This document shows positions 1,510 through 22,298 of a stretch of DNA of 64,000 nucleotides, one piece after another. This stretch comes from Candidatus Omnitrophota bacterium (GTDB lineage Bacteria > Omnitrophota > Gorgyraeia > Gygaellales > Profunditerraquicolaceae): the NCBI GenBank assembly GCA_028712375.1, contig JAQTQG010000003.1, positions 14,619 through 78,618 on the forward strand, given 5' to 3'. The notes beneath the pieces are model-generated. The model worked only from the letters and a program-made list of their open reading frames with translations. It was not told the DNA's origin and searched no databases. How positions within the stretch are numbered: position 1 is the stretch's first letter; the number at the start of each line of letters is the position of its first letter. The position numbers and the translations under genes are program-made.

Positions 1510-1812
1510 ATGATCGCTAAGACTTATAGTTTTGGCCTGCTGGGCCTGGAGGCTTACCCGGTAGAGATTGAAATTGATGTAGCAAGCGGACTGCCGGCGA
1601 TTAACCTGGTAGGGCTGGCCGATACCGCAATTAAAGAAAGTAAAGAGAGAGTGCGCTCGGCCATTAAAAATTCAGGGTTCCAATGGCCTGCCCAAAGAAT
1701 AACGGTAAACCTGGCCCCTTCCGATATCAAGAAAGACGATACCAAAAAACCAGGATTCCCCCCCTACTTTTCCTCTAAAAGTTATACTCAATCTCTATCT
1801 TTCCCCCTATAA
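1510..1812 (+). pseudogene. comM: 5' fragment of Mg-chelatase-like competence protein ComM/YifB, interrupted after codon ~74 (…APSDIKK). The ORF reads into the inserted element and ends at 1812.
   Basis: MIAKTYSFGLLGLEAYPVEIEIDVASGLPAINLVGLADTAIKESKERVRSAIKNSGFQWPAQRITVNLAPSDIKK is the canonical YifB/ComM N-terminus. The remainder of the protein resumes at 20955. Confidence 0.8.
1720..1736. other. Left attachment junction (attL-like): tccGATATCAAgaaaga, 15/17 identical to the right junction
   Basis: Direct comparison of the two comM breakpoints. The shared GATATCAA core is codon-aligned (D-I-K) in both fragments. Confidence 0.6.
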
Positions 1813-4061: not shown

Positions 4062-4370
4062 TTACGTCTTTTTAAGTGGCGTACCATCTGAATCTACCAT
4101 CCTATTTGAAACAATTAGAATTAGATCGATTAACCACCACATGCCAAGACCTCCAAGCGTGCATAATTTCAATATCCCTAACCCTACGTAACCAAGATAG
4201 AATCTATCAAATCCCCAATATCCGAGAAAAAGAGAAAGCAATAACGCCACTAACCAACTTTTACCTTCTTTCTGTAGCCCACTAATTGATCTTCCAGATA
4301 CTGCACAACCGCACTTAACGCAAATAACGGCTTCATTGTCTATCTCTGCACCACATTTTTGACAAAACAT
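4062..4370 (-). CDS. Zinc-ribbon + TM2-domain small membrane protein
   Basis: N-terminal [10 protein letters not shown]…CVKCG zinc ribbon. [35 protein letters not shown] matches the TM2-domain pattern. Confidence 0.55.
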
Positions 4371-4392
4371 TAAAGCCTCCTTTATCTTAAAT

Positions 4393-4764
4393 TTATCTTC
4401 CAGTTATAGAATTAATTATAGTCATAGGATGGACAAACCACAGAATAAGAAGTATTGTGAAAATTGTCCCCATAATTACGCCAAACATAGCCCTACCCAT
4501 TCCGTGTTTTTCAGGGTTTCTCTTAATGTCCCTTATCGCGAGAATACCAAATAGCAAAGCAAACGGAGCTGGAATAAAAAGAATGGAAAAGAAAGCTAAA
4601 TAGCCCGCTGTAATAGCATATCCTGATCTTCCCACTGGCAATAAAGCACGAACAAGGGCATCCTGTCCTGGATCCTTGTTTATTTTTGCTCCTGTAGGAA
4701 CTCCGCACTTCATACAAACAACAGCATCGTCTTTAATTTCTCCACCGCATTTTCTACAAAACAT
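4393..4764 (-). CDS. Zinc-ribbon + DUF4190-like small membrane protein
   Basis: [10 protein letters not shown]…CMKCG ribbon almost identical to the neighbour's. C-terminal Gly-rich TM hairpins ([16 protein letters not shown]). Confidence 0.5.
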
Positions 4765-6198: not shown

Positions 6199-7509
6199 TT
6201 ATTTAGCTAAAGTAAGGCTTTTGAGTGAGTTGGCAAAAAATTCACCAATTATAGATTCTTCATAAGAGATGCTCTCACCTTTAGGTAAGATATAGAGATT
6301 CTTGATTTCATTCATAAGAGAACGGTAATTCTGAACATCAATTGAACTAGAATTAAGATTATCTCTATAGGGGTTAAGTGTTTTCATTTTTTCATTAAGA
6401 TCTTCAATTTTAGAGAAAATTTTATTAATTCTGTTAAAAATTACCTGGTTGGTATAAAACACTTCAAGCTTAATCAACTCTGGCCACATAGCATGCTTAT
6501 TTGCAGTATTAAAATCTTTATAATTCAATAATACCCAATGCGAATCTGCGTATAAATAATTATTTACCCCTATAAAAAGTAGCTGATAGTATTCTTTTAA
6601 ATCCCCATCAAGAGCAGCTAGATAATTACGGGTCACCTTTGCCTCGGGATCTGAATTTATCTTCTTTAAAACAATATCGCCTTTTCGACTCAACTCCTCT
6701 TCTTCGGATTTAATGAATTTTCTAACCTTTTCCTTAGAAATTTCAGTTACATTATCCAATAGCCATTTTGCTACTGTGAGCTTAAAATTTCTTAAACCAC
6801 CATATGAAAGATGCTCTAGGCCATCAATATCAGTAAATTTTTCTACTTCAGGCCGTAGTAAAAGACAAACTTTTATTCCTAATCCATGCATTAAACCATA
6901 CTCATAACTAACACTGTTACTTGCAGAAGATATATCTACAATTCCATATTTACAGGTTTTTATTAATTTGCAAACTTTACAAAGAACAGCTTCAGAGGTT
7001 AATTTATCCTTGGCTATGATTGGAATTAAACCAAACTTAGTTAATATTTCTTTTAAAGCTGATTCGCAATCCTCATATTTTTGATAAGGTATATCTAAAA
7101 AAACGTTATTCTCGTTAAATTCCTGTGTAATTTCATTATTCAAATCACAAGCATCCTTTGCTAAAGGCCCACAGGCATTAATAAAGACTTTTTCCGAATC
7201 CACACTTTTTTGTTTAGGCTTTGTAGCATTCTCCTTGCCACTTTCTTTTTCCAATTTTAACTCTTCTATTGCCATCTGAACTTGACTTTTCATTATGTTG
7301 AATGCTGGTTTCAAAGTATAAGAAGAAAGTGGTAAATTAATTTTGTGGGCATTTTGTATAAAATTATAGTAATATTGTTCATTAAATTTCAACAATGGTG
7401 CAACTTTGTTCGACCAATCAATACATGCTTGCTGAGAAGGAAATCCCTTTTCGACTTCCTCTATATTATAAAGATCTTGTAATTTTTTTAAAATTCCACC
7501 GAAATCCAT
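6199..7509 (-). CDS. Hypothetical protein with central TIR/nucleoside-2-deoxyribosyltransferase-like motif. Candidate effector or sensor of the defence cassette.
   Basis: KVFINACGP…IVDISSASNSVSYEYGLMHGLGIKVCLLL resembles the N…E-G-A-LGKPV pattern of NDT/TIR-like Rossmannoid domains. Otherwise no match I can recognise. 49 nt downstream of the Cas4-like gene. Confidence 0.3.
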   Translation of the reverse strand: MDFGGILKKLQDLYNIEEVEKGFPSQQACIDWSNKVAPLLKFNEQYYYNFIQNAHKINLPLSSYTLKPAFNIMKSQVQMAIEELKLEKESGKENATKPKQKSVDSEKVFINACGPLAKDACDLNNEITQEFNENNVFLDIPYQKYEDCESALKEILTKFGLIPIIAKDKLTSEAVLCKVCKLIKTCKYGIVDISSASNSVSYEYGLMHGLGIKVCLLLRPEVEKFTDIDGLEHLSYGGLRNFKLTVAKWLLDNVTEISKEKVRKFIKSEEEELSRKGDIVLKKINSDPEAKVTRNYLAALDGDLKEYYQLLFIGVNNYLYADSHWVLLNYKDFNTANKHAMWPELIKLEVFYTNQVIFNRINKIFSKIEDLNEKMKTLNPYRDNLNSSSIDVQNYRSLMNEIKNLYILPKGESISYEESIIGEFFANSLKSLTLAK

Positions 7510-7558
7510 CTTTTAATATTTTTAAATATTTGTGGAGTAACCAGCAAGTAAGTTAACA

Positions 7559-8317
7559 TTACCCTACTTTAACTTCTTTCAGTATTTTCTGGTAAATACA
7601 GAAATCACAATCAGCACTATATTCAGGAACTACGGGACCCACCAAGCATTTATACATCTCAATAATCTTAGCCTCAATCCAAGAATCATTTCCGTCATAA
7701 GGTATTATTTTGATATCGAAATCAAGCTTTGCACTAAAGGTATCCCTGTCAGTAAGCCCATTGCAATACACAAAATAACCGGTTGGAGATACATTAAAAC
7801 CGTTTTTTCTGAATAACCACTGGTATATTTCCATCTGCCTCTTATAAGATATCTGCCAATCAGCATCTATGCTTACTTCTTCTTCCTTTGATGTGCTCTT
7901 GTAATCTACGATAAATAGCTGGCCATCCGATGAGGCCCAAACGTCATCTATCCCCCCTGTAAGTAAAAGATTTGTCGGTATGTGCAGATATTCAATACCA
8001 CCATGAAGAGCATCCCGCCAGATATTCAGCTTATCGTGCTTAAAAGGAACCGCCTTGATCCCATTTGCTTCCATAAGAGGATGGCTTATCTGTTTATTCC
8101 GATAGACATCGAATTCTTTCTTCAGTAACTTGTCTACTGCTGAATTTAGTGTAAAAGGGAACCCGGGTGGTTGCCCTACGCCTAATCTTCTGTCTAAATA
8201 GAAGCAACGTGGGCAATTTATGAATAGTTCAATTTTGGAGCGGCTTAGTTTAAATGGAATTTTACTATGCGGATCGAATAAATTCTTAGTTTTTCTACCA
8301 GTATAGTATTTAGACAT
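7559..8317 (-). CDS. Cas4/RecB-like PD-(D/E)xK nuclease with probable Fe-S cysteines
   Basis: GGIDDVW…LFIVDYKSTSK (motifs II/III). YKRQMEIYQW (QxxxY). Cys pairs at both ends (CPRC…CDFC). Confidence 0.6.
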   Translation of the reverse strand: MSKYYTGRKTKNLFDPHSKIPFKLSRSKIELFINCPRCFYLDRRLGVGQPPGFPFTLNSAVDKLLKKEFDVYRNKQISHPLMEANGIKAVPFKHDKLNIWRDALHGGIEYLHIPTNLLLTGGIDDVWASSDGQLFIVDYKSTSKEEEVSIDADWQISYKRQMEIYQWLFRKNGFNVSPTGYFVYCNGLTDRDTFSAKLDFDIKIIPYDGNDSWIEAKIIEMYKCLVGPVVPEYSADCDFCIYQKILKEVKVG

Positions 8318-8461
8318 AGACCTACAGACTATTATTCCCGATTCTTCTTTGGCTATCTGCCGCCGTAGAACTTAAACTAGGCTTGGATTTAGGTTATCTA
8401 TCCATCAGCTTAAAAGCTTCCCGCTTTCAACAATGCTGATGTAGTGAAAAAACTATAAATC

Positions 8462-10351
8462 TTAAGAAATAGTTACAACCGCTTCTGCTTCTGACCAAGT
8501 GTTTATCAAATCCAATATTTTTTGAATTTGAATCGGATAATCTTCTAATGAAAGATCTTCATATTTCATAAAAGCAGCTCCGATCTTGCCATGTTTTTCT
8601 ACTTGATTTGTAGCTATGCCTATAATGTTTTCAAGTTCTGGTGTAATTTTGATGATCTTCCCAATATTTTTATCCAAAGAACCATCAATAAAATCGTTTT
8701 CTTTAAACATTCTGAGCTCAGATTCTTCTTTGTCTGTTTTATTAGGTTTATTTTCTGGAAAGTTAATAGGGTCTATATCATGGATAGCAACGTAAGGAAC
8801 TTTGAACTTATTAAGTACTCGCATAAATATATGTATATTGGTTTTTCCGCCACATTCAACTACGCATATGTTTTTAGCAACGAAGTCATATTTTTTATCT
8901 TTTACAGTAAATTTTGTTGCCCAGAAAGGAACTATAAATTTTTCGGTATCACCTTCAACCAATACTACTTTCTTAGAGAAAAACATTTCACTACGCGATA
9001 AGTCAAAAAGGCTTAAATAACGGAAAACTTTTTTTAACCTATTGTTTTCCTGTGTGGTTTCAGCAGCAAATATATCTCCAACAAATTGAAAGGTATTTGT
9101 TGGACCTTTTTCCTCACGCCCAACGATCACGATATTCTTGTATTCAAACATATCTACAAAAAAGTTAGAATGTGTACAGGCCAATATTTGATCAGTAGTT
9201 GCGATATTCCTTAAAACTTCAATCATCTTTCTTTGGCCATTAGGATGTAAATATAGTTCTGGTTCCTCAATTGCAAGTATAAAATTTTTCACCAAGGCTT
9301 CCGGTTGATCTTCTTCTACAATTACAGTACTTACTGTTTTAGCATAAGCTCTTATATAAGCTAAAATTAGTGCACGTTGAAGACCATGTCCCTTAGAATC
9401 AATCGAAGTAGGCAAAGCGTCATCTAAAGTAATATTCACATCTTTAAATAAATCAACAAGTTCGGGAGTGACGATTTCAATACCAACCTTTGTTCCTGGC
9501 ATACTTTCGCTTATTATGCCTGTAATAGTGCTTTCGAAATCTTTTATTTCCTGTAATCGGTCTGAGTCATCTCCAGTACCTGATTTATTTAAATATTTCT
9601 TCAACCCTTCGAGCTGGTTCTTAACCTCTTCAAATTTTGGATTCTTTAAAACTATCCTATTTGTTAAATCGGTTACTAACTTCCCTAATACAGTTTGCTG
9701 TGTAGTCTTAGATTCATCACATGCATCTTTTACAGCAGGAACCAAATAAAATTTAGGCAACAAATCAGCAAATACTTCTTTGAGGCCTGCAGGATTCTTT
9801 ATCCAATCTGGATCACCAAATTCCACTTTTCCGTCCTCTATACACTTCATAACCCCTTCTTTATATGAAGCCTGGGTCACGGTTCCCTTATCAGTTTTAA
9901 AATAGTCTGGTAAATTTTTATCTTTCACAATTTTTGCAATATCCCCTTTATATTCATCAAATCTTGATAGATCAAAATGGAGCTCGCGAGGCTTAGCTTG
10001 CCATCCATAAAACGTCGTTTCATATTTTTCACTCTGATTATTATACTCTACGACCTTTTTCACTCGAATTGCATGGTCATAGATCCAATGCTTAAGATAC
10101 TTTTGTTTTTCATCATACTCAGTTAATCTATCAAATGTCAAAATAATAGTGATTGGTTCATTATTCTTTTTGAAATAAAAATATTCCTCGTTTATCCCCT
10201 TAACCGAATCTTGATAGAATAATTCTATTGCTCGAAGTATATTGGATTTACCTGCATTATTCTCTCCAATAAACATAGCCAATGAATCTATTTCAATTTC
10301 TATGCTGTCTATGGACTTAAATTTGTGTATTTCGACTTTACGTAACTTCAT
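8462..10351 (-). CDS. OLD-family nuclease: N-terminal ABC/AAA_15-type ATPase fused to a C-terminal Toprim domain
   Basis: KLRKVEIHKFKSI…FIGENNAGKSNILRAIELF (Walker A). C-terminal VVLVEGDTEKFIVPFW … VAIHDIDP (Toprim E and DxD). 629 aa. Confidence 0.75.
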   Translation of the reverse strand: MKLRKVEIHKFKSIDSIEIEIDSLAMFIGENNAGKSNILRAIELFYQDSVKGINEEYFYFKKNNEPITIILTFDRLTEYDEKQKYLKHWIYDHAIRVKKVVEYNNQSEKYETTFYGWQAKPRELHFDLSRFDEYKGDIAKIVKDKNLPDYFKTDKGTVTQASYKEGVMKCIEDGKVEFGDPDWIKNPAGLKEVFADLLPKFYLVPAVKDACDESKTTQQTVLGKLVTDLTNRIVLKNPKFEEVKNQLEGLKKYLNKSGTGDDSDRLQEIKDFESTITGIISESMPGTKVGIEIVTPELVDLFKDVNITLDDALPTSIDSKGHGLQRALILAYIRAYAKTVSTVIVEEDQPEALVKNFILAIEEPELYLHPNGQRKMIEVLRNIATTDQILACTHSNFFVDMFEYKNIVIVGREEKGPTNTFQFVGDIFAAETTQENNRLKKVFRYLSLFDLSRSEMFFSKKVVLVEGDTEKFIVPFWATKFTVKDKKYDFVAKNICVVECGGKTNIHIFMRVLNKFKVPYVAIHDIDPINFPENKPNKTDKEESELRMFKENDFIDGSLDKNIGKIIKITPELENIIGIATNQVEKHGKIGAAFMKYEDLSLEDYPIQIQKILDLINTWSEAEAVVTIS

Positions 10352-10708
10352 GGTGTTATTATACCTCTTTTTATTACCCCTAACAATAATTTCAAGTTTT
10401 TCACTGAGAGCTTATCTGCATGCCTCAAGCCACAATCATACCTTAGAAACCGATAAAACTTCATAATCTGCTTAGTTTCTTCTATTAACTTCCTATGCCT
10501 TATGTTCCATAGCCGAGTAATCGGACTGATCATCTTTACCACCTCCTGCTATCAATAGACGCAGAAAGTGGAAAAATCTAACAGGATTTTTAGAATTTAA
10601 CTTCGTTTTTTACTTAATTTTGGGCAGGATTTATATATGGAATTTCTCTATGAACTTCGCTTTTGGTATAAATTACGAAGCTATATTATTGAAACCTGAA
10701 ATTTGCTT

Positions 10709-12220
10709 CTATTCTGGAGCTCCCATAATAAAACCTGTGGTAAGCCCTTTTTCTTTAAACCAACTTTTTAATATGCCCTTACTTCCAGCAATTGCCGTAT
10801 CAATTTCTGAATCCGTTGGGGCACTCCACATTTGCCAGTTAAATAATCTTGCTAAACATGCTTTTATTTTTGAGTAGTCGCTATCCACTAAATCCCTATA
10901 AAATGGCTTAGCTTTCTCATCTCCATCATGAATATCTAATTTCGCACATATTGCGTCTCGCAATAGTTCTGACCAGGCCATAATTGATTTTGAAGAAAAT
11001 ATCCTACTGAGTTTACGCTGATTTTGATCACTAGGCGCGGCTGCAGGATTCCAATGTGAAAGCGCAAGTTCAAAAATCATATTCATTAAAGCAATAACAT
11101 TCTTAAACTCTGATTCTCTCCTATATTTTTCTGAAAACATATCATCATCAAGAGGCTCGGTATAAAGAAAACAAGCAAGGATTGACTTAGAGAGCATATC
11201 CACAGTAAGCGGTTGTTCATTGGAGCTCCTATTACTTGTTGAAACGAGTGGTTTGAGTTTATTAGACTCATCTTCAAGAATAGAATTATATAAGTAACTA
11301 CGGAAACGCTTGTTTCGCTCGCCCCGCGTAAGAGATATGTCTTTCTGCTCTAGAAATGACAAAAAACCACTTTCATTTTTTTTCTCAATATCTTCTCTAT
11401 TTTTATACTCTTCAAAATCTTTCCCAAATTGATTCCCTAATTTAAGAATTAATACTGACGAAAAAAATCTTGTTTGGGCGAATTTATCATGTGCTGATAT
11501 ATTAGCTTGATTAAGCATCCTCAAGTCGGGATCAAGATAGATCTTGCATTCAAATGTCTTTCTCCCATTCCACAATATCGCAGCTGCCTTGTGTTGACCA
11601 TCAAAAAGCAATATCCTATTATTTGAAACACGTCCTATTGAAGGTTGCAAAACTGGATAAATCTGGAAATGACGAAACATTTCAAATACTTTATCAAAAA
11701 TCAAATAACGTGGTTGTAGGCCCAAATGTTCATTATCATCATCATCGCTGTTAAGAATTGATATGGGTAAATTACCATAAAAATATTTCCAACCGGTTCG
11801 CGGACAGGTTTGGATATTAAACTGAGATGAAAAGGAGTGGTGTTGTAAAGTAACTGTTTTATCTTGGACATTAATAGCAACCGCTTCTCCAAAAGACTCA
11901 ATATCACCTGCCTTTTTTAAGTGCGTAATTAGATTACGCAATGTTAATCTATCGCCTTCTTCAAAAAATGATTCAAGTCGAAGTTTTATACGAAAATCCC
12001 CTAGAGGCAACATTCCCTTCGCCTTATTATGGTATTCGCACATAGGTGCAATATTATCAAGTTCTGATTGCCCATCTCGAGCATAAGCCCAAATATGGTC
12101 AAAATGAACCCTCTCCCCTTCCGGGATTGCATGCCCATTGGCAAAGCAAATACGCCCATGTCGATTTAAAATTATTTTCTTTTCATCATCATTGATTTGC
12201 CTTTTTAGAGTAATTGCCAT
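10709..12220 (-). CDS. Fusion protein: N-terminal HNH nuclease motif + C-terminal DGQH(R/K) ParB/DndB-like domain
   Basis: HFDHIWAYARDGQSELDNIAPMCEYHNKAKG (HNH). NRILLFDGQHKAAAIL (DGQHR-type motif). Confidence 0.6.
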   Translation of the reverse strand: MAITLKRQINDDEKKIILNRHGRICFANGHAIPEGERVHFDHIWAYARDGQSELDNIAPMCEYHNKAKGMLPLGDFRIKLRLESFFEEGDRLTLRNLITHLKKAGDIESFGEAVAINVQDKTVTLQHHSFSSQFNIQTCPRTGWKYFYGNLPISILNSDDDDNEHLGLQPRYLIFDKVFEMFRHFQIYPVLQPSIGRVSNNRILLFDGQHKAAAILWNGRKTFECKIYLDPDLRMLNQANISAHDKFAQTRFFSSVLILKLGNQFGKDFEEYKNREDIEKKNESGFLSFLEQKDISLTRGERNKRFRSYLYNSILEDESNKLKPLVSTSNRSSNEQPLTVDMLSKSILACFLYTEPLDDDMFSEKYRRESEFKNVIALMNMIFELALSHWNPAAAPSDQNQRKLSRIFSSKSIMAWSELLRDAICAKLDIHDGDEKAKPFYRDLVDSDYSKIKACLARLFNWQMWSAPTDSEIDTAIAGSKGILKSWFKEKGLTTGFIMGAPE

Positions 12221-12288
12221 GTGCTACCTCCATCTATTCTATTAGCTTAAAATCAAAATGTGTTTTTGGTAAAAAATTCTATCTATAC

Positions 12289-12501
12289 TCAATGATGCTC
12301 TCTTTCGTATAGAGTGTGCAGTATCTTATATAATCTTTTGCCGTTTGTAACTTGTCCATCACTATTAACAGATACAATCAAATCCTTAGTTGCTAGCCTT
12401 ATCCCGTCATCACCATATTTGAACATTCTTACAACATCACTTAAATAGATAGCAAATCTACCTTTGGGACTTTGAATAATCTTACCTTTTGCACCAGGCA
12501 T
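12289..12501 (-). CDS. Small hypothetical protein (70 aa) upstream of the HNH-DGQH gene
   Basis: ORF only. Same strand, compact spacing. Confidence 0.3.
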   Translation of the reverse strand: MPGAKGKIIQSPKGRFAIYLSDVVRMFKYGDDGIRLATKDLIVSVNSDGQVTNGKRLYKILHTLYEREHH

Positions 12502-12553
12502 ATTATCCTCCTCTGGATTAAATCAAAGATGGAACCGACACGTATTGTTATAA

Positions 12554-12886
12554 TTAAGCATATTTCTCTTTGTGCATTTCATAATACAAATCAAATATTT
12601 TCTTTGCAATCTTAGAACCTGTGCTATTTTTAATAATACTCATGGTATTCTCTACTGAACCTATCCAAACTTCTCCTTTATGATTTAAAACGGGTCCATG
12701 TTTTGTTAATTGCCTCACAACCCATTCCCAGTCTTTTTGAAATTCCTCAGGAAAATCTTTTGGTTCTAAAACATGGCAGATTAAATATGATCCAATGAGC
12801 CTTGACCTTACGTCTTTTTGACCAACAGCTAAAGCATAAACAACTTCAAATAATTTCTCTTGTACATAAGAATAACTTTTTCTCAT
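12554..12886 (-). CDS. Hypothetical protein (110 aa), first gene of the minus-strand block
   Basis: ORF only. Confidence 0.3.
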   Translation of the reverse strand: MRKSYSYVQEKLFEVVYALAVGQKDVRSRLIGSYLICHVLEPKDFPEEFQKDWEWVVRQLTKHGPVLNHKGEVWIGSVENTMSIIKNSTGSKIAKKIFDLYYEMHKEKYA

Positions 12887-13139
12887 AATAAATATCTATA
12901 AGCAAAAAAACAACCCTATTTTAGAGAGTTGCCTTAGATTTGACCTAGTTTAACCTCATTACCGCTCCTATTTAAATATAAGTTATTATCCTACCCCCAT
13001 AGCCCAAAATCAACCCTTTTTTAACTGTTCTAGGATAATAAATGTTAAATGAATTTAGTATTCTACACAAATTTCGAAGTAGTAATACTGGACGCAGCAT
13101 CTTAAAAGGTATATAATATTTTTAACAAAGGAAAACACA

Positions 13140-13988
13140 ATGAAGTTTGCCGATGTAAATAAGACCATAATAAAGCTGTGCAAAGATAACAGTTTGGATT
13201 TCTTAGCTGAATGCGAAGCTATCCAATCTGAAGTTGATGCCTGCTCTCTACCTGAAATTCTCGACCATTTAGATAATGCAGGTATCATACCCGAATGTTT
13301 TGATCACGATTCTACGGAAGAAAAGTTGTTCGCAAAGTATTGTGACTCTTTATTAGCTCGTGGGTTACGAGAAATAGGATTAAACGCATATACAATACCA
13401 GAACGCAGTGATGCGGCTGATGTTCAAGGGAAGGGTAGCAATTACACTATTGTTGGAGATGCTAAAGCGTTTCGTCTTAGCAGAACAGCAAAAAACCAAA
13501 AAGATTTTAAGGTCGAGGCTCTTGATAAATGGAGAAATGGATCCGATTTCGCTGTATTAGTAAGCCCTCTTTACCAGTACCCAAATACAAATAGCCAGAT
13601 TTACTCACAAGCAATAAGGTATAATGTTACCCTATTATCTTATACCCACCTAGCTTTCCTAATAAGAAATAGAAATAATATAAAGAATGGCTCTCTTAGG
13701 GGATTATGGGAAATCGGAAAAAAGCTCTCTATTGGTAAAAGCGCCAAATCATACTGGGGATTAATTGACGCTAAAATGCTAGAAATTACCGGGAAGGATA
13801 AAAAGGATTGGGATAGCGCTATAGAAACAGAATACAAATGCTTAGTTCAGAGAGCTAAGGACGAGATTAAGTATTGGGAAGATGAAAAAGCAAAGATATT
13901 AAAATTGTCTCACGATGCGGCAATACAAGAACTAATTAAGGCTAGGAAAATAACAGAAAAGGTCGGAGTTATTAAGCAGTTTATATAG
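13140..13988 (+). CDS. Putative PD-(D/E)xK restriction endonuclease (convergent partner of the methyltransferase)
   Basis: SDAADVQGKGSNYTIVGDAKAF fits a D…(D/E)xK arrangement. The stop is 8 nt from the methylase stop. Confidence 0.35.
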   Translation: MKFADVNKTIIKLCKDNSLDFLAECEAIQSEVDACSLPEILDHLDNAGIIPECFDHDSTEEKLFAKYCDSLLARGLREIGLNAYTIPERSDAADVQGKGSNYTIVGDAKAFRLSRTAKNQKDFKVEALDKWRNGSDFAVLVSPLYQYPNTNSQIYSQAIRYNVTLLSYTHLAFLIRNRNNIKNGSLRGLWEIGKKLSIGKSAKSYWGLIDAKMLEITGKDKKDWDSAIETEYKCLVQRAKDEIKYWEDEKAKILKLSHDAAIQELIKARKITEKVGVIKQFI

Positions 13989-13995
13989 CGTTGAT

Positions 13996-16200
13996 TTAAA
14001 GAGATTTTCTTTTTGTGATTTTGAAGCCTGAATAGAGTGTTGAGATGTAGTCTGAAATACTCATAATCATATCTGCATCACATCCACCCCCAGTGATGTT
14101 CTTATAGTTGACCAGTAACCCAATTCCCTGTGCGAATATTGCCAACCCAATGTCTTTCTCGCTCCATCCCGCTTCTTTCAACACATTACCATAATCAGAT
14201 ACGTAAGAAGATACCTTAGCAATTATTTCGGGGAAAGATATTGATGATTTCTCTTCCATTGTTTTATGACAGACGAAGGTAATGCAAGTATCTATTGCTT
14301 CTGATGTCATGCCGCGAGGTCTTGCTTTTCTTTCTATACTAAGTGGTTGCACGCTTGTGATTATAAAATTAGTGTCTCTAAACGCCCGAATAATTGCGTC
14401 CCATCCGCCTAGTGAGCTATGGCTATAAATAAACGATAGGACGCCGTCATATTTCAAAACTCTCTCAGCTTCTTTTATCGCCTTGCCTAATTCTAAGCAA
14501 TACTTATCGTGAGCTTCAAGGGCCGATTGACTACGAAATGCTGAAGCAACTAATTCGGAACCAAAGCTAGTGTCTTGTTTGTTAAATAAATCCGGATCAA
14601 CATTTTTTAATAAAATTCTTTTCCACGCATAAAAGAAATCCGCTAATATGCTGTAATAAATATTATCATAGTATGGGGGATCTGTTATAATTGCATCAAA
14701 ATAATTGCTCTTAAATGGGAGGTTTTGGGCAATTCCACAGTTTACTTCCGGTTTATATGGAAATTTTTCGATGGAGCTAATGCCTGAAATGATACGGTCG
14801 AGCTTATCCCAAAGATTAGCTGGGCCATTCATTATGGGGTCTATTTCGCCATAATCCCAAAGCATGGGAACGCCTGGACCGCAAAAAGCTCGCCCCATCT
14901 GTTCATTTTGCGAAATCCACATAGATAAACGACAATTCCAATCCACAAGTTGATCAATTAAACTCGCCAATACAGAAATAGCAAAATCCGCCAACTCCTT
15001 TGAATTCTGCTCCTTCAATAACCGATATTCATCTTTCAGACACTTTATCAAAGACAGTAGAACCACCCTCTGCCTTTTATTGACAAAATCACTATGAGTT
15101 TCTATGCCGTAAACTGAGGGGTTCACAATGCCGGACCATTTGGGCAATTTCGTATTTGGAAGACTGCTTTCTAAAGATTTTAATAAATCATTTTCAAGAT
15201 GAGAGATCTTAACGGCTGAGGGAATCAGCAAATCGTTGTTTTCTATAAGCAAAAACTCTTTCCCGGATTTTTCTTTCCGCTTAACAAAAGCAATTAGCTC
15301 ATCTCGAGTGTTGCTAATATCAACTTTTTCAACTATATGAGAGCATTTTGGGCATTTAGCAGACCCATTTCGACCTTCCCAATTTGAGTTATGTTCATAT
15401 TTGTCATCCACTTCCTTAATCCCAATATGCTGTCGATCCTTGGAATTATTTATAATAATTGCTATTCGCTTATTTTTCTTGCGTGACAGCCAGGGTCTTT
15501 TTATTAAATAATATACATATTTACATTTTGGGCATTTTAATGAATACGTCCAGAAATACACTACAGGTGGTCTTTGTTTCGTCTCGGATATCTCACCCTG
15601 CTTACTTCTTGATACCCCTCCCTTCCTCAATGGAAACAATTCATTTGTTGCTTCTTCTAAAGACTTTAAAACACGAATGCCAGATTTCCTTACAATATCT
15701 TCGGCACTTCTTAAATCAACTTTCTGCGAGTATTCAAGATTTGCTTTTTGTATAAAAACAGACAATTCATTCGCATCAATAGAGTATGCTTTGGCACCTA
15801 TGTTGGCTATTTCTAATGGTATTGTTCCTCCACCACCAAACATATCTAGGGCCTTTGGAGGAACTACGTATTGTTCTTTAATAATAGCTCGGGCTTTATC
15901 TATGGCACTTTTGTTTGCATCCCCCGCTAACTCAACCATTATTTCATACATTTTAGGTGTACTTATTTTACATAGAGAAGCAAACGCAAGTATCCTCATA
16001 GCAGAATGAGGTCTTCGAGCCCACCAAACGTGGAGTGTATGCGACGTTTCTCCACTTCGGTATCGTTCCGCAAGACCAGCTATTGAGGCTTCGTAATGTA
16101 AAAGTCCACTATCTATCAAACGATGTTCCGAAGTGTTTGGGATCAGAGCAATTTCAGGACTTGATTGGGTTTTATTTTGACACATACTACTTATTGGCAT
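13996..16200 (-). CDS. DUF1156/COG1743-type adenine-specific DNA methyltransferase with zinc ribbon
   Basis: LHVWWARRPHSAMRILAFASL (DUF1156). LDMFGGGGTIPLE (motif I). CPKCKYVYY…CPKCSH (Zn ribbon). IITDPPYYDNIYY (motif IV DPPY). Confidence 0.75.
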   Translation of the reverse strand: MPISSMCQNKTQSSPEIALIPNTSEHRLIDSGLLHYEASIAGLAERYRSGETSHTLHVWWARRPHSAMRILAFASLCKISTPKMYEIMVELAGDANKSAIDKARAIIKEQYVVPPKALDMFGGGGTIPLEIANIGAKAYSIDANELSVFIQKANLEYSQKVDLRSAEDIVRKSGIRVLKSLEEATNELFPLRKGGVSRSKQGEISETKQRPPVVYFWTYSLKCPKCKYVYYLIKRPWLSRKKNKRIAIIINNSKDRQHIGIKEVDDKYEHNSNWEGRNGSAKCPKCSHIVEKVDISNTRDELIAFVKRKEKSGKEFLLIENNDLLIPSAVKISHLENDLLKSLESSLPNTKLPKWSGIVNPSVYGIETHSDFVNKRQRVVLLSLIKCLKDEYRLLKEQNSKELADFAISVLASLIDQLVDWNCRLSMWISQNEQMGRAFCGPGVPMLWDYGEIDPIMNGPANLWDKLDRIISGISSIEKFPYKPEVNCGIAQNLPFKSNYFDAIITDPPYYDNIYYSILADFFYAWKRILLKNVDPDLFNKQDTSFGSELVASAFRSQSALEAHDKYCLELGKAIKEAERVLKYDGVLSFIYSHSSLGGWDAIIRAFRDTNFIITSVQPLSIERKARPRGMTSEAIDTCITFVCHKTMEEKSSISFPEIIAKVSSYVSDYGNVLKEAGWSEKDIGLAIFAQGIGLLVNYKNITGGGCDADMIMSISDYISTLYSGFKITKRKSL

Positions 16201-16519: not shown

Positions 16520-17134
16520 TTAAACACTAAGTAGCTCGGCACACTCCGCCAGATCTTCCTTCGTTACGCCCGTGTAGATCTGCGTCGTAGAAACGAACTT
16601 GTGTCCCAAAAACTCCTGCACCTTCCGGATGTTGCCACACTTTCGCATTAACTCCGTCCCAACCGTGTGCCTCAGACAGTGTGGTGAATATCTTCCTTCC
16701 AAGCCACTTTCACTAACCCATTTATTAAGGTTTAACTGCACTGCCCTCTGGGTAATTCTTTTGTTGTTCCTTGATAAAAATAAGGGTTCGCTCAAGGAGA
16801 AGCCTTCATCCTTTGCCTTTCTCTGCCTAATGTATTTATCTATGTGGGCTCTAATATCCTTGTTTAATGGTATTTGCCTAATCCTGTCGCCCTTGCCTTT
16901 TATCTCCAACACTTCCTTTGACGAATAGCCGTTGTGCACATCCTTGGCATTAAGGTTGATCGTTTCACTAAGGCGTAATCCAGTATTAAGCATAAGGTCA
17001 AACATACAATAATCACGCCAGGCTTTCCTGCTGTCGGCAAGTGTCTTTAAGAATTGTTTCTTTTGTTCAGAAGTCAGATATCTTATCGTGTTCCTCTTGG
17101 CCATTTCACACCTCTTCGTTAATATACTGCTCAA
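16520..17134 (-). CDS. Tyrosine recombinase, catalytic domain only (no N-terminal core-binding domain). Minimal recombinase or remnant.
   Basis: LRLSE (Arg I). HCLRHT (HxxR). STTQIYTGV (catalytic Tyr). Only 204 aa. Confidence 0.6.
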   Translation of the reverse strand: MSSILTKRCEMAKRNTIRYLTSEQKKQFLKTLADSRKAWRDYCMFDLMLNTGLRLSETINLNAKDVHNGYSSKEVLEIKGKGDRIRQIPLNKDIRAHIDKYIRQRKAKDEGFSLSEPLFLSRNNKRITQRAVQLNLNKWVSESGLEGRYSPHCLRHTVGTELMRKCGNIRKVQEFLGHKFVSTTQIYTGVTKEDLAECAELLSV

Positions 17135-17576: not shown

Positions 17577-19037
17577 CTATGAATTAGCAAAAAAACCTAT
17601 CTTGGTTTTATTGTCCTTAACAAAGATTCCGTCCTGTTCTAGACTCGCTCCAAACAAAAGGTCATTCATTGTAATAATATTCCTTTTCTCTTGAACCAGC
17701 CGTCGCAGGGCGTGGAAGACAGCATTCTTGATGTAGCCACCACTAAACTGAAATTGTCTGGCCAGAACAGCAAAATCAACACCTTGGGCAAGAGTTACCT
17801 TGCTTGGAATATGCGATCGCCAAATTTCTTTGCGTATCTTCTCATCAGGCAAATCAAATTTAACCTTTAAAGTAACTCTGCGTTCAAGTGCAGGATCAAG
17901 CAAATTATCCATGTTCGAAGTTAAGATTACCACTCCTTCAAACCGTTCAATTTCCTGTAGCATAATATTAACAAACCTAATATCGTGTTCTTGGGCTGCG
18001 AAGTTGCGGTTATATAAAATAGAATCCGCCTCGTCAATACAGATAACAACATTATTTTGCTTTGCTGACTTAAAAATAGAAGATATTTGTTTATCGGTTT
18101 CACCAAACCAACGTGAATTTATTTTGGGAAATTCAACAACAAGCAACTTCTTCTTAAGATGTTTTGCTATTGCCTCAGATAACATCGATTTTCCCGTGCC
18201 GGGCGGACCGTAAAAGAGGAAAACCAATCCTTTGCCATTTTTAATTGTTTCTTCTACACCAAGATCTTCAAGTCCTTTATCCTGCAACCCGGATAATAAG
18301 AAACTGACGTTTTTCTTCACATCGAGAGATAGCTTAACATCTTCAAGAGAATATGCCGGATCCTTTAAAAAACCAACCTCTTCGCAAGGGTGTAAATCTT
18401 TTTTATTTTCTGCCCTTCCAGGTCTAGATTCTTTATACTCCCCACTTATCATCCTAGAAAAAACGTCCAACAAAGACGAACTCATCCCGAAACTGACTAC
18501 GGCCGAGTTGTGGTTGTTTCGATAATATGGGTACAAAATAGAATATTTTAAAAGATTGGCATTTCGGTTAAAATAACGAGACAACCCCATTCTCCCGATT
18601 ACAGAATCATTTAAGTCAAAGATCCTAAGGAGCAGATCCCTTGAACAGATATTCTCTTTTAGGTGCAAGAACTCCAAATAAAGGTAATATAGGAGTATTT
18701 GCTTTTCAAAGATATCCAAACCGTATAGCGAGGCAGTTTTTTCTAACGCAAACTTACTGCCCTTAGACATGGAATCCTGTACCCTTTGCCAAAACAAAAC
18801 TTCTTTTGTCTTTATTGTTGAGTCCAATTCTGATACATTCTTGCGGAATGCCTCTACATCATCCTTAGATTTCTTAATAAGAATAATTCTTTTGTTTTGG
18901 TAAAGTTCGCAGATCTTGAAATATTCTTCGATGTATTCTTGGTCACCTGAAAGAAAATTATTTTCCGGCATTACCTTTTCTCCTTTCTTTCTGCACAAAC
19001 TTATCAAAATCCTCAACTGTCTTTTTGAGCCTTTCAT
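17577..19037 (-). CDS. AAA+ ATPase (classical AAA clade) with ~250-aa N-terminal domain of unknown function
   Basis: LFYGPPGTGKSMLSEAIAKHL (Walker A). VVICIDEADSIL (Walker B). SRH-like TSNMDNLLDPALERR. Confidence 0.7.
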   Translation of the reverse strand: MKGSKRQLRILISLCRKKGEKVMPENNFLSGDQEYIEEYFKICELYQNKRIILIKKSKDDVEAFRKNVSELDSTIKTKEVLFWQRVQDSMSKGSKFALEKTASLYGLDIFEKQILLYYLYLEFLHLKENICSRDLLLRIFDLNDSVIGRMGLSRYFNRNANLLKYSILYPYYRNNHNSAVVSFGMSSSLLDVFSRMISGEYKESRPGRAENKKDLHPCEEVGFLKDPAYSLEDVKLSLDVKKNVSFLLSGLQDKGLEDLGVEETIKNGKGLVFLFYGPPGTGKSMLSEAIAKHLKKKLLVVEFPKINSRWFGETDKQISSIFKSAKQNNVVICIDEADSILYNRNFAAQEHDIRFVNIMLQEIERFEGVVILTSNMDNLLDPALERRVTLKVKFDLPDEKIRKEIWRSHIPSKVTLAQGVDFAVLARQFQFSGGYIKNAVFHALRRLVQEKRNIITMNDLLFGASLEQDGIFVKDNKTKIGFFANS

Positions 19038-19632
19038 TCATCTGATCATTCATTAACTTTGTTAAGGCTATCGCTTTTTCATATTTCTTGCCATACCAAA
19101 TAAGTTTCTTCGTAGGTTTACCTTTGTAACACCACCGCTTAAAACTCGCCGCTTGCTTTATCAGTTCAGGCACATTGATTACGCCAAATTTCTTATAAAT
19201 ACCGCTTAATCTAGAACTCTCATAAGCAAGATCAAAACAGTTTCGACATCCAAAATAATTGCCGACCCTGTAAAGTACCCCTACCCGCCTATCACAGCCT
19301 AAGATTGACAAAGGACACTTAAACCAATATCTGACACCGCCGTAATTACAAGAAGTTGCGACTAAATCGACCCTGTATTCGAAATTCTGATATTCTCCAT
19401 TAGGCTGAAGAATAGAGTAATAGAAATCTAAGAATGGATCATTCTTGTTTATAAACGATACTACAATATGGATACCGTTTTTAAAGACTTCCCCATTATA
19501 AGGAATATCAATAATCCCAAAATCACTGGCTTCTAAAAAATCATTAAGTTTTAGTGATAATATTGGAATCTTGTAAAGGTTATCTGCCACCAACTTGGGG
19601 CTTTTATCTCTGTCCATTGTAAAACACCTCAA
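18958..19632 (-). CDS. Cys-rich hypothetical protein upstream of, and overlapping, the AAA ATPase
   Basis: ORF. CNYGGVRYWFKCP…GCRNC cysteine pairs. Confidence 0.35.
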   Translation of the reverse strand: MRCFTMDRDKSPKLVADNLYKIPILSLKLNDFLEASDFGIIDIPYNGEVFKNGIHIVVSFINKNDPFLDFYYSILQPNGEYQNFEYRVDLVATSCNYGGVRYWFKCPLSILGCDRRVGVLYRVGNYFGCRNCFDLAYESSRLSGIYKKFGVINVPELIKQAASFKRWCYKGKPTKKLIWYGKKYEKAIALTKLMNDQMNERLKKTVEDFDKFVQKERRKGNAGK

Positions 19633-19738
19633 AAAAATGCCGAAATGAATAAGAATTCTTTGATTTCAATCTTAAATTGGTTGACCAATTTTGCCTTTTA
19701 TATAAACCAAAAATAACACGCAGAAATAATCAACTTTA

Positions 19739-20098
19739 TTACCATTCAATAATAATCTTCTTATCTAACATCTGCACTTTTCCGATAGCCTCCATTTTGA
19801 TTAGGCGTTTTCCCTTGTTTTCTGACACCTGGTTGAGTGATCTATCTTTTGACATAGCAAAACACCTTTTTGACTCATTCCCCTCGGAAAATCGTGTTGA
19901 GTTGGTCAAAACGCCTTCCAGAATTGACCTGACATATACTCTGCTAGGACCAATTCCTTTTCTAGCAGGATTGTGCCCCATTCTGAATGGGAACAAATAA
20001 CAACCCGTCGTGTTATCACAGAAGCGAACATCTTTAGGCCTACCTGCACAAATAAGACAGTGTTTTCGGATGGCTTGTAACGGCGTAAGGTGTTTCAT
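19739..20098 (-). CDS. Hypothetical small protein with N-terminal Cys cluster
   Basis: ORF. HCLICAGRPKDVRFC motif. Confidence 0.3.
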   Translation of the reverse strand: MKHLTPLQAIRKHCLICAGRPKDVRFCDNTTGCYLFPFRMGHNPARKGIGPSRVYVRSILEGVLTNSTRFSEGNESKRCFAMSKDRSLNQVSENKGKRLIKMEAIGKVQMLDKKIIIEW

Positions 20099-20289
20099 TT
20101 ATAACCCCCTTTCGTGCCCACTCTTCTGGCCTACGACCGGAATCAACTTTACTGAGAGTAGTTCAAATTCACTTAAGTTGTCTCCTCTGTCGTTTTTCAA
20201 TATTACTTTGGCTGTTGAGGAACTCCGCCGAAGGCGGATAAATGTATAACTACTCTTTTGTACAATACTCTTCTGTAAAGTATTCTATT

Positions 20290-20392
20290 GTGTCCCCCTA
20301 CTTAGGGGGTAGCGAATAACCTATATAGGAGACAGTAAATAACCCACTTAGGGGGTAGCAATAACCCATATAGGGGTAGCAAATAGTATAAC
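20290..20392. repeat. Iteron-like direct repeats (TTAGGGGGTAGCRAATAACC, ~2.5 copies) plus palindrome TCCCCCTA-CT-TAGGGGGT. Candidate origin or operator for the adjacent replisome-organiser gene.
   Basis: Read directly: copies at 20302-20321, 20348-20366, partial at 20371-20390. Palindrome at 20293-20310. Confidence 0.6.
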
Positions 20393-20402
20393 TAAATCCA
20401 TA

Positions 20403-20831
20403 TTAACTTGGCTTCACCCATATCATCCTGCCCTCTATGTACGGGTAATCTTTGCCGTTCTTCACTTCAGATCCCTCCTTAATATCTATACGAATCTTCC
20501 AGCTTTTCCGCTTGCCTTTGGTTACTGTTATCACCCACTTTCCAGCGTCCTGCTCAATCCCAATTTTTCTTCCATCCCGGGTTATCATTTTTTTCTCCAA
20601 TAGCTTTTTCTTTGTTCTAGGTACGTGAGATAATGGTATACCAGTGCTATTTTCGATTTGGCTGTTGGAAATCCAGTCCAAATCCTTTTGGTACCCTAAG
20701 GTCTTCATAACAATAAACCACCACAAGGCGTGCTCGTACGGACTAAGGTAACGAGCAATCCAAACATAACCCATTCTCAACAAACGCCAAGGCAGTTTTA
20801 TGAAACGTACATTATCTTTTAGATCTGCCAT
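20403..20831 (-). CDS. Phage replisome-organiser / DnaD-like N-terminal HTH protein (putative replication initiator)
   Basis: WRLLRMGYVWIARYLSPYEHALWWFIVMKTLGYQKDLDWISNSQIENSTGIPLSHVPRTKKKLLEKKMITR resembles the phage replisome-organiser winged-helix pattern. Iterons lie immediately downstream. Confidence 0.5.
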   Translation of the reverse strand: MADLKDNVRFIKLPWRLLRMGYVWIARYLSPYEHALWWFIVMKTLGYQKDLDWISNSQIENSTGIPLSHVPRTKKKLLEKKMITRDGRKIGIEQDAGKWVITVTKGKRKSWKIRIDIKEGSEVKNGKDYPYIEGRMIWVKPS

Positions 20832-20954
20832 TTATTCAGCTCCTTTCCTGGTCATTTCCCCAAGGGAAAATACCACTTTTCTTTCTTTTTTATTGGTAAT
20901 TTTTAATTGCTATAACTTTAAGATAATTAAAGAGATGAGATATATCCTTGCGGA

Positions 20955-22298
20955 ATGCACTCTGATATCAAAAAAGAGGGCGCTTGTTTTGATTTAGCCA
21001 TTGCCCTGGGCATTCTGGCGGCAACCGGGCAGATCGGCAAAGAGCGCCTTCAAAACTACTCTTTTCTGGGAGAATTATCCCTAGACGGCCAATTGCGGCC
21101 GGTGCATGGCGTTCTGGCGATAAGTTTAACTATCTCTAAATTCCCGGTTAAGAGCCTTGTTCTTCCCGAAAAGAACGCTCAGGAAGCAGCGGTTATACAA
21201 GAAATTTCTGCCTGGCCGCTCAAAAACTTAAAAGAAGTGGTGCAATTTTTAGCTGATCCCGGAAGCCGAAGCCCATTTAAATTAGATATTAACCACGTTT
21301 TTAAAGGCGGTGGGAATTATACTTTGGATTTCTCCGAAGTTAAAGGCCAATATTTTGCAAAAAGAGCGCTGGAAGTGGCGGTATCCGGGGGGCACAATAT
21401 TATTATGCTCGGTCCGCCCGGCAGCGGGAAAACTATGTTAGCTAAAAGGATTCCCACTATTATGCCTAACCTTTCCTTAGAAGAAGCTCTGGAAATCACC
21501 AAAATCCATTCCGTAGCCGGGACGCTATTAAATGATAATTTTATCAGAACCCGGCCCTTTCGCTGCCCGCATCACAGTATTTCAGATACCGCCTTAATCG
21601 GAGGAGGCAGCGTGCCTAAACCCGGAGAGATCAGCCTGTCTCATTACGGCGTGCTCTTTCTGGATGAACTCCCGGAATTTAACCGCAAGGCCCTGGAAGC
21701 ATTAAGACAGCCGCTGGAAGACAACCTGATTTGTATCAGCCGCGTAAAAAGAACCCTGGTATTCCCGGCTTGTTTTATTTTAGCCGCCGCGCTTAACCCT
21801 TGTCCGTGCGGCAATTATTTTAACCCGCACAAACCATGCCATTGCAACCCGACAAAAATCAAAAATTACCTGGGGAAAATTTCCGGGCCGCTGCTGGATA
21901 GAATCGACCTGCACATTGAAGTCCCGCAGGTAAAACACCGGGAATTATCAGACGCGCGGGAAGCAGAATCATCGGCAGCCATCCGGCAACGCGTAGAAAA
22001 CGCCCGCGCAATTCAACAAAAAAGATTCTCCGCCATAGGCAAATCCGGCTCCACAAGCATATTTTGTAACGCCCAAATGACCAATAGGCTCATTAAAGAA
22101 TATTGTGTTTTAGATGCCGAGGCTAGTAACTTATTAAATATGGCAATAACCGAATTGGCCCTATCGGCAAGGGCTTATGATAAAATACTTAAGGTGAGCC
22201 GGACGATTAGTGACCTGGCAGGCAGCCAAAACATTAAATCCGAACATGTTGCCGAGGCAATTCAATACCGCTCTTTAGACCGGCAGCTCTCCGGATAA
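20955..22298 (+). CDS. comM: 3' portion of ComM/YifB: AAA+ Mg-chelatase-like ATPase domain
   Basis: Starts HSDIKKEGACFDLAIALGIL, continuing exactly where the 5' fragment stops. IMLGPPGSGKTMLAKRIP (Walker A). VLFLDELPEF (Walker B). C-terminal ComM tail. Confidence 0.85.
   Translation: MHSDIKKEGACFDLAIALGILAATGQIGKERLQNYSFLGELSLDGQLRPVHGVLAISLTISKFPVKSLVLPEKNAQEAAVIQEISAWPLKNLKEVVQFLADPGSRSPFKLDINHVFKGGGNYTLDFSEVKGQYFAKRALEVAVSGGHNIIMLGPPGSGKTMLAKRIPTIMPNLSLEEALEITKIHSVAGTLLNDNFIRTRPFRCPHHSISDTALIGGGSVPKPGEISLSHYGVLFLDELPEFNRKALEALRQPLEDNLICISRVKRTLVFPACFILAAALNPCPCGNYFNPHKPCHCNPTKIKNYLGKISGPLLDRIDLHIEVPQVKHRELSDAREAESSAAIRQRVENARAIQQKRFSAIGKSGSTSIFCNAQMTNRLIKEYCVLDAEASNLLNMAITELALSARAYDKILKVSRTISDLAGSQNIKSEHVAEAIQYRSLDRQLSG
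20961..20977. other. Right attachment junction (attR-like): tctGATATCAAaaaaga
   Basis: Matches the left junction. Confidence 0.6.

Follow-up and report, generated by a model that had tools for sequence, protein, structure and literature searches.

What is the function of a short repeat array that lies beside a phage-like gene at the end of an integrated island, and could it allow the island to multiply once it has been excised? The stretch of DNA analysed here (the window, 64,000 nucleotides) comes from a Candidatus Omnitrophica MAG and carries a 19,241-bp island that splits comM, a gene of the Mg-chelatase/YifB family. The 5′ fragment of comM (1510-1730, plus strand) covers positions 1-58 of the 121 positions of Pfam ChlI and reads ...VNLAPSDIKK before island DNA begins, and the 3′ part (20964-22298, plus strand) carries ChlI positions 52-121 followed by Mg_chelatase and Mg_chelatase_C; taken overall, the comM-related spans are 1510-1812 and 20955-22298. 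The 8-mer GATATCAA occurs in the window at 1723 and 20964 only, forming the attL core (1723-1730) and the attR core (20964-20971), and excision of the 19,241 bp between the two restores a 515-aa ComM ORF. The predicted attP junction reads …GGAATGCACTCTGATATCAAGAAAGACGATACC… and the predicted attB junction …CCCCTTCCGATATCAAAAAAGAGGGCGCTTG…. The GC content of the island is 36.5% vs about 43% for its flanks, and the window outside the island consists of housekeeping DNA. An 11-mer, TCCCCCTACTT, common to the origin region and the attL-proximal region near 1757 was discarded as a candidate element, as it is at chance level for a 100-nt query searched against 128 kb.

The gene order of the island, read from the left, starts with a large serine recombinase of 495 aa (1775-3262, minus strand), the island integrase, which contains the Resolvase, Recombinase and Zn_ribbon_recom domains and matches the PHROG integrase family with an E value of 2e-93. 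It is followed by MerR-type and XRE-type regulators, an excisionase-like HTH protein and small membrane proteins, and two neighbouring small zinc-ribbon membrane proteins (TM2; DUF4190) lie near the recombinase end at 4062-4764 (minus strand). The defence cargo identified by Pfam and PADLOC (6199-16200, minus strand except for the HindIII-type enzyme on the plus strand) consists of a PDC-S35-like protein, a Cas4-like PD-(D/E)XK nuclease, an OLD-family ATPase-Toprim nuclease, an HNH protein, a HindIII-type restriction enzyme and a Type II methylase. Then come a short tyrosine recombinase, an AAA ATPase, two proteins of 224 and 119 aa, the repeat array and, last, the O-like gene. The tyrosine recombinase (204 aa, 16520-17134, minus strand) adjoins the HindIII-type enzyme and a 734-aa DUF1156-type methylase (13140-16200), and together with this restriction-modification pair it may form a nested mobile module. 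The initial annotation had taken the region for an island rather than a prophage, and this reading stands: the element is bounded, measures 19.2 kb and encodes a large serine recombinase alongside regulators and defence cargo, and Pfam and PHROG revealed among its ORFs none of the virion, packaging or lysis genes of a lambdoid prophage. Likewise, the 22 island ORFs scanned gave no Pfam match to Tra, FtsK/SpoIIIE-type, relaxase or T4SS genes, and nowhere in the island did the searches find a helicase, primase, DnaC-like or lambda-P-like protein or an O C-terminal domain. The possibility that a downstream gene supplies the O C-terminal domain or P was rejected, since no island ORF resembles either.

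The genes between the cargo and the array appear in other elements too. The AAA ATPase (PF00004; 17577-19037, minus strand), a variant with an N-terminal winged helix, belongs to the classic clade and resembles IetA/IteA in its ATPase core only (108 bits vs a cutoff of 510); an IetS protease partner is not present. Its counterpart at locus L021 is 74% identical and stands in the same gene order, so that it counts as backbone and not as cargo. The 224-aa protein (18958-19632, minus strand), also encoded by a backbone gene, contains four invariant cysteines and is built from a beta-rich core and a long helix at its C-terminus; it matches neither a known family nor a known fold, and it may act either in recombination, as a directionality factor, or as an accessory to replication. 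Homologues, which recur next to large serine recombinases and replication genes in several uncultivated phyla, were found at L021, L023-L028 and L031, those outside L021 being more distant. The first gene downstream of the array (19739-20098, minus strand) encodes the 119-aa CxxC protein, again part of the backbone, with homologues of about 120 aa at 54-63% identity. At L021 the block of 119-aa, 224-aa and AAA genes recurs, the end of the 119-aa homologue preceding the 224-aa homologue. The 224-aa homologue lies between a Toprim_2 primase and a large serine recombinase at L023/24, in a Margulisbacteria genome, and between Prim-Pol plus AAA_25 and a large serine recombinase at L025-28; at L031 it accompanies Prim-Pol and DUF5906, with Type III restriction-modification and Fic cargo and two serine recombinases. 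As these homologues sit between a replication gene and a large serine recombinase, the short O-like gene and its array fill the replication-initiator slot of a type of integrative element that recurs. When viral contigs were scanned with the AAA ATPase or with the single 224-aa protein, nothing was returned.

The protein in this slot is encoded by a 142-aa ORF at 20403-20831 (minus strand), which the initial annotation had compared to phage replisome organisers. The ORF is real, and several lines of evidence place its product with lambda O: Pfam Phage_rep_O (PF04492) is matched over residues 2-99 (E 1.5e-14, 54.7 bits vs a curated cutoff of 28.7), the PHROG class 'replication initiation O-like' is hit by four families (best E 3e-16, all 1.8e-09 or better), and a pairwise BLASTP comparison with lambda O gives an E value of 1e-9. 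The score against the NCBIfam model of the phage O N-terminal domain, TIGR01610, is 34.5 bits, below its cutoff of 45.5. Using tblastn, the protein matched annotated O genes in 145 phage records, and an exhaustive HMMER search returned 951 relatives; among the best 150 of these the majority are 200-300 aa long and few are short. A word-index homologue search retrieved the query itself alone. Only the N-terminal part of the O-like PHROG profiles (232-346 positions) is spanned by the 142-aa protein.

Predicting the fold of 20403-20831 had been proposed at the outset as a check, and the AlphaFold (AF2) model built from 76 homologues is a confident winged helix with a pLDDT of 91. In it, two helices are combined with a winged helix-turn-helix at residues about 51-92 and with a tail at 100-139 that forms a three-stranded beta-sheet (pLDDT 81-88). 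In the BFVD set of viral models, 'lambda GpO N-terminal' is the highest-ranking named entry, in second place overall, and searches of the PDB by sequence or fold yielded no specific relative and generic winged helices alone, e.g., CRP/FNR and MarR. The initiator thus consists of the N-terminal winged-helix domain and a beta-sheet tail of about 40 residues, with the O C-terminal domain absent. The same tail is found in P0002, P0004, P0005 and P0022, which makes it a conserved feature and not frameshift debris, and the short O form seems to be a variant that has been maintained, not a gene that has broken.

The repeats themselves begin 10 nt past the stop codon of this ORF, immediately downstream of it as first described. 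All sequences quoted in the initial annotation were found in the window where it had placed them, and the stretch 20290-20400 reads GTGTCCCCCTACTTAGGGGGTAGCGAATAACCTATATAGGAGACAGTAAATAACCCACTTAGGGGGTAGCAATAACCCATATAGGGGTAGCAAATAGTATAAC. The 19-mer TAGGGGGTAGCGAATAACC has an exact copy at 20303, a copy with one nucleotide deleted at 20349 and a partial copy at 20371; allowing up to three mismatches, it has two matches in the window vs 0.04 expected, and two or more were reached in none of 100 shuffles. For each of the motifs TAGGGG[G]TAGC and GTAGC[N]AATA, the two strands of the 64-kb window contain three copies, in every case within the 83 bp from 20303 to 20385. A degenerate unit, TAGGAGACAGTAAATAACC, is present at 20326, so that the array has four units, starting at 20303, 20326, 20349 and 20371 with a period of 22-23 bp, instead of the approximately 2.5 copies counted originally. 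Nor is the perfect palindrome described in front of them a separate element: its 7-bp arms, CCCCCTA and TAGGGGG with the 2-nt spacer CT (20294-20309), are the dyad of the iteron closest to the AT-rich side, which aligns with lambda iteron 4.

Viewed on the gene strand, the order of elements is stop codon, four dyads, AT-rich repeats and a GC-rich hairpin. The four dyad-symmetric iterons (20293-20393, minus strand) have their dyads at about 20293-20310, 20320-20331, 20342-20356 and 20364-20377, and in order from the stop codon these read ACCCCTATATGGGT, ACCCCCTAAGTGGGT, CTCCTATATAGG and ACCCCCTAAGTAGGGGGA. The adjoining AT-rich region (20239-20292, minus strand) contains three repeats of about 15 bp (CACAATAGAATACTT, TACAGAAGAGTATTG and TACAAAAGAGTAGTT on the gene strand) and is presumed to be the DNA-unwinding element, its AT-richness being modest at 70-75% vs 63.5% for the island overall. 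On its far side lies the palindrome TCCGCC-TTC-GGCGGA (20224-20238, minus strand), whose DNA hairpin has a predicted energy of -6.5 kcal/mol (z -3.7). No minus-strand ORF of at least 40 aa crosses 20099-20402. A position-weight scan found no convincing iteron elsewhere, the weak sites at 2113-2135 and 20427-20449 being at background level, and Rfam gave no match in 19500-21100, which makes a known RNA element unlikely. Scans for promoters and terminators detected neither a terminator in the interval from the initiator gene to the iterons nor a convincing sigma-70 promoter, and no DnaA boxes or partition genes were seen. GC skew was rejected as an origin signal, because across the island it merely tracks gene orientation.

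How closely does this DNA resemble the origin of lambda? When the 122-nt ori-lambda segment was slid without gaps across both strands of the window (about 128,000 positions), its best placement was at 20382-20261 (minus strand), with 61 of 122 identities, 5.9 SD above the mean; the runner-up had 54. The four window dyads are in phase with lambda iterons 1-4, the dyad centres being spaced by 21.5, 23.5 and 24 bp vs 20, 24 and 23 bp for the lambda iterons, and the sequence of the last iteron also agrees. The annotated lambda origin runs …TATCCCTCAAAACAGGGGGA directly into CACAAAAGACACTATTACAAAAGA… and then into its palindrome, the counterpart in the window being …GCTACCCCCTAAGTAGGGGGA followed directly by CACAATAGAATACTTTACAGAAGA…; the AT-rich region of the window aligns with the lambda CACAAAAGACACTATTACAAAAGA, and the junction between iterons and AT-rich DNA, AGGGGGACACAA(A/T)AGA, agrees with annotated ori-lambda. 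In the published mechanism, binding of O to its iterons is accompanied by bending of the DNA and unwinding of the AT-rich tract (PMC12663957; PMC7466680).

Comparison with other O loci points the same way. In lambda and 12 phage-like contigs, 2-5 repeats with a period of about 21 bp lie inside a 233-299-aa O-like ORF directly after the N-domain, an array within the O gene being the classical arrangement (PMC7466680). Three short-O loci, all metagenomic, could be compared at the DNA level: the window, L016 (160 aa, 51% identity to the window protein) and L019 (114 aa, 39% identity). In all three, the gene stops and is followed by 4-5 iterons, three AT-rich repeats of about 15 bp and a GC hairpin, and the iteron sequence differs in each. 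Hairpins occupy the equivalent place in L016, L019 and lambda; two compensatory pairs distinguish the stem of the window from that of L016, and the TTC loop and the AT-rich repeats are conserved between them. AT-rich repeats are equivalently placed in L004, L008, L016 and L019, those of L004 and L008 following the array and being of like kind, CACAATAGACAATATACAAAAGACAAT. This conservation of architecture while the iterons diverge is as expected of a working pair of initiator and origin. The early suggestion of an iteron origin is thereby borne out, in so far as the lambda-type architecture is found beside O-like genes in lambda, in the 12 phage contigs and at the two other short-O loci, and we consider it very likely that the repeats and the O-like protein represent a lambda-type origin and its cognate binding protein.

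Some further observations were made at these loci. A TACAAAAGA or ACAATAGA-like motif is found in 2-4 copies in the AT-rich tract adjoining the last iteron in lambda, in phage contigs and in the three short-O loci (window 20239-20292; lambda, L029, 520-560; L004 7309-7360; L008 8376-8420; L016 837-890; L019 636-692), and judged by these copies it appears to be a cis motif conserved across very distant hosts. At L016, the closest short-O locus, an N6/N4 DNA methylase gene (1-234) lies upstream of the initiator, and in the contig with P0284 a methylase gene precedes the homologue of the 119-aa protein, which hints at a conserved neighbourhood of methylase and initiator. Contig scans with the short O protein and with the AAA ATPase gave nothing relevant, and alignments of eight sequences were too diverse to serve as search patterns.

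We therefore come to the question of what such an origin would replicate. Judging from its sequence and setting, the segment 20224-20831 is probably a lambda-type theta-replication module that stands at the right end of the comM island and serves its excised form. A lambda-type origin with its initiator at the end of a mobile island implies that the excised island can probably copy itself, and episomal replication of the island is what the origin is likely to drive. In the scheme that we envisage, the recombinase would excise and circularise the island, dimers of the short O protein would occupy the four iterons, bending the DNA or wrapping it in the manner of the lambda O-some, and the adjoining AT-rich repeats would melt upon O binding. 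Transcription through the origin helps initiation in lambda; as there is no terminator-like site between gene and origin, transcription of the initiator gene would run into the origin here too, where it may likewise aid melting. A replicative helicase would then be loaded and the circle replicated in the theta mode. In lambda, the O C-terminal domain recruits P-DnaB. The island has neither this domain nor a P-like loader, helicase or primase, and loading must hence use the machinery of the host or of a co-infecting phage, perhaps via the conserved beta-sheet tail; for the same reason, 'autonomous' may here still imply reliance on the host or a helper phage. This is a known kind of origin in a new configuration, with a short initiator, an origin outside the gene and no P, as read from the sequence, and the carrier, a serine-recombinase defence island in a candidate phylum, is also new for a lambda-type origin.

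Two features touch on how the initiator gene may be controlled. Once the island is excised as a circle, the recombinase gene would be followed by attP and the initiator gene, head-to-tail on a single strand at a distance of about 0.2 kb, and read-through from the recombinase gene could link expression of the initiator to excision. An imperfect palindrome with 12-bp arms, TGGTCATTTCCC/GGGAAAATACCA (20849-20875), is located just upstream of the initiator start codon, between the right end of the island and the initiator ribosome-binding site; by analogy with iteron plasmids it may serve as an operator for autoregulation.

Our main explanation has a narrower form, in which the island is a helper-dependent satellite: the short O protein would do no more than mark and open the origin, and replication would start only if an infecting phage supplies the loader or the replisome, as for the PLEs of Vibrio cholerae. 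An initiator that only binds DNA, in an island without loader, helicase or primase, would suit this reading, and so would a size of about 19 kb, the large serine recombinase, the anti-phage cargo and the lack of structural genes. The logic of PLE is alike, with a large serine recombinase, an iteron-binding RepA and replication only during ICP1 infection (PMC7145576). Against these parallels, packaging, capsid-redirecting and helper-sensing genes were not recognised in the island, and no helper phage is known for this Omnitrophica MAG or present in the window. Moreover, iteron plasmids with DNA-binding-only initiators replicate by host factors alone, and we rate the helper-dependent version as possible but rather unlikely. 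Extending this line of thought, the island could belong to an undescribed satellite-like class of serine-recombinase defence islands in uncultivated phyla, hosted by Omnitrophica, Margulisbacteria and the hosts of L025-L031, with a backbone of a large serine recombinase, a four-Cys protein of about 200 aa and a swappable initiator, in which a split O needs an infecting lambda-type phage. Such a class, whose existence we regard as unlikely, would keep the origin-binding half of O in the island and receive the helicase-loading half or a P-like partner from the phage, and amplification of the island would be tied directly to phage infection.

Could the module instead be inert, a truncated leftover of lambdoid-prophage replication that no longer fires, in an island that moves, if it does so, by excision and passive transfer alone? 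The protein has about half the length of a phage O, the missing half is the one needed for helicase recruitment, and the partner replication genes are absent, all of which such a relic would explain. It would not explain why L016 and L019, whose proteins are 39-51% identical to that of the window, repeat the layout of a short gene and an external origin with its iterons, AT-rich repeats and hairpin all intact, nor why the tail beyond the winged helix has been conserved and is modelled with confidence. The initiator ORF and its ribosome-binding site, the four iterons, the recombinase and both att cores are all intact, and since decay would not keep such features, we consider this explanation improbable. 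That the O-like protein is a repressor or incompatibility factor, and the repeats operators of the backbone genes downstream or else titrators that hinder the replication of related phages by binding their O, P or host factors, would accord with the generic winged-helix fold known from MarR and CRP-type regulators, with the position of the repeats between the initiator gene and the next operon, with the palindrome upstream of the initiator gene and with an island otherwise devoted to defence, but is very unlikely, because operators or decoys need no AT-rich block and distal palindrome in ori-lambda order, conserved in three loci, and because the known function of the Phage_rep_O family is replication initiation (PMC7466680).

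With a replication module of the excised island as the preferred reading, the element can be set against known systems. Iteron plasmids such as pPS10, F and R6K, whose features compared here are general knowledge, share with it a small winged-helix initiator (Rep) and directly repeated iterons adjacent to AT-rich DNA; a further shared feature may be the inverted repeat through which the rep promoter is autorepressed, for which 20849-20875 is the island candidate; their initiators are of the Rep_3 family, whereas that of the island is Phage_rep_O by Pfam. PICIs/SaPIs and P4 are integrated satellites that have, like the island, an iteron origin adjoining the initiator gene (PMC7145576). They differ in having initiators with helicase and primase activities, autonomous replication, packaging genes and a tyrosine integrase, whereas the island gave no primase, helicase or packaging match and its end-standing integrase is a serine recombinase. 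AICEs such as pSAM2 combine a tyrosine or serine recombinase with Rep and an origin and replicate plasmid-like after excision (PMC3218068). The island has the same combination of integrase, initiator and origin without Tra, relaxase or T4SS, whereas AICEs carry an FtsK-like Tra protein and use RepSA (rolling circle), RepAM or Prim-Pol, and a screen using Phage_rep_O turned up no AICE of that type (PMC3218068).

The PLE of V. cholerae is closer in organisation, being an anti-phage serine-recombinase island of about 18-19 kb without recognisable structural genes. Its initiator is limited to iteron binding, with neither helicase nor primase activity (PMC7145576), as is predicted from sequence for the initiator of the island, and PLE is the precedent for an iteron-binding-only initiator that replicates its element solely during phage infection (PMC7145576). 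The features found in common are the large serine recombinase, the island of about 18 kb without virion genes, and the iteron origin with a DNA-binding-only initiator. The two differ in that RepA is a RepA_N protein, whereas the 142-aa protein gives Phage_rep_O only and no RepA_N match in Pfam, and helper dependence, packaging and interference are demonstrated properties of PLE. Our analysis suggests that some defence islands amplify as episomes after excision, which, if correct, would affect what is read from metagenomes about defence systems, namely their copy number, their mobility and the dosage of their genes; the combination of a serine recombinase, a protein of about 200 aa and a swappable initiator can serve as a marker for finding more such elements.

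At the level of the origin itself, the nearest relatives are lambda and the lambdoid phages, including Stx phages. In common with them are the homologous initiator N-terminal domain (Phage_rep_O), four dyad iterons about 20-24 bp apart, an AT-rich tract starting with CACAA(A/T)AGA and a palindrome beyond it. In lambda the origin lies mid-way in the gene for the 299-aa O, within its coding sequence, and P follows, whereas the island gene ends before the origin, which is 3′ of its stop codon; where O continues into its C-terminal domain the island initiator has the beta-sheet tail of about 40 residues, and there is no adjacent P-type helicase loader. The host is an Omnitrophica MAG and not an enterobacterium, and the carrier is an island without virion genes and not a phage. 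Here, nature offers a 'minimal O' without the P-binding domain and with its origin outside the gene, which asks how an O-some recruits the helicase without P, and the four-iteron phasing and the junction, retained in an island of a candidate phylum, extend ori-lambda far beyond the phages of enterobacteria.
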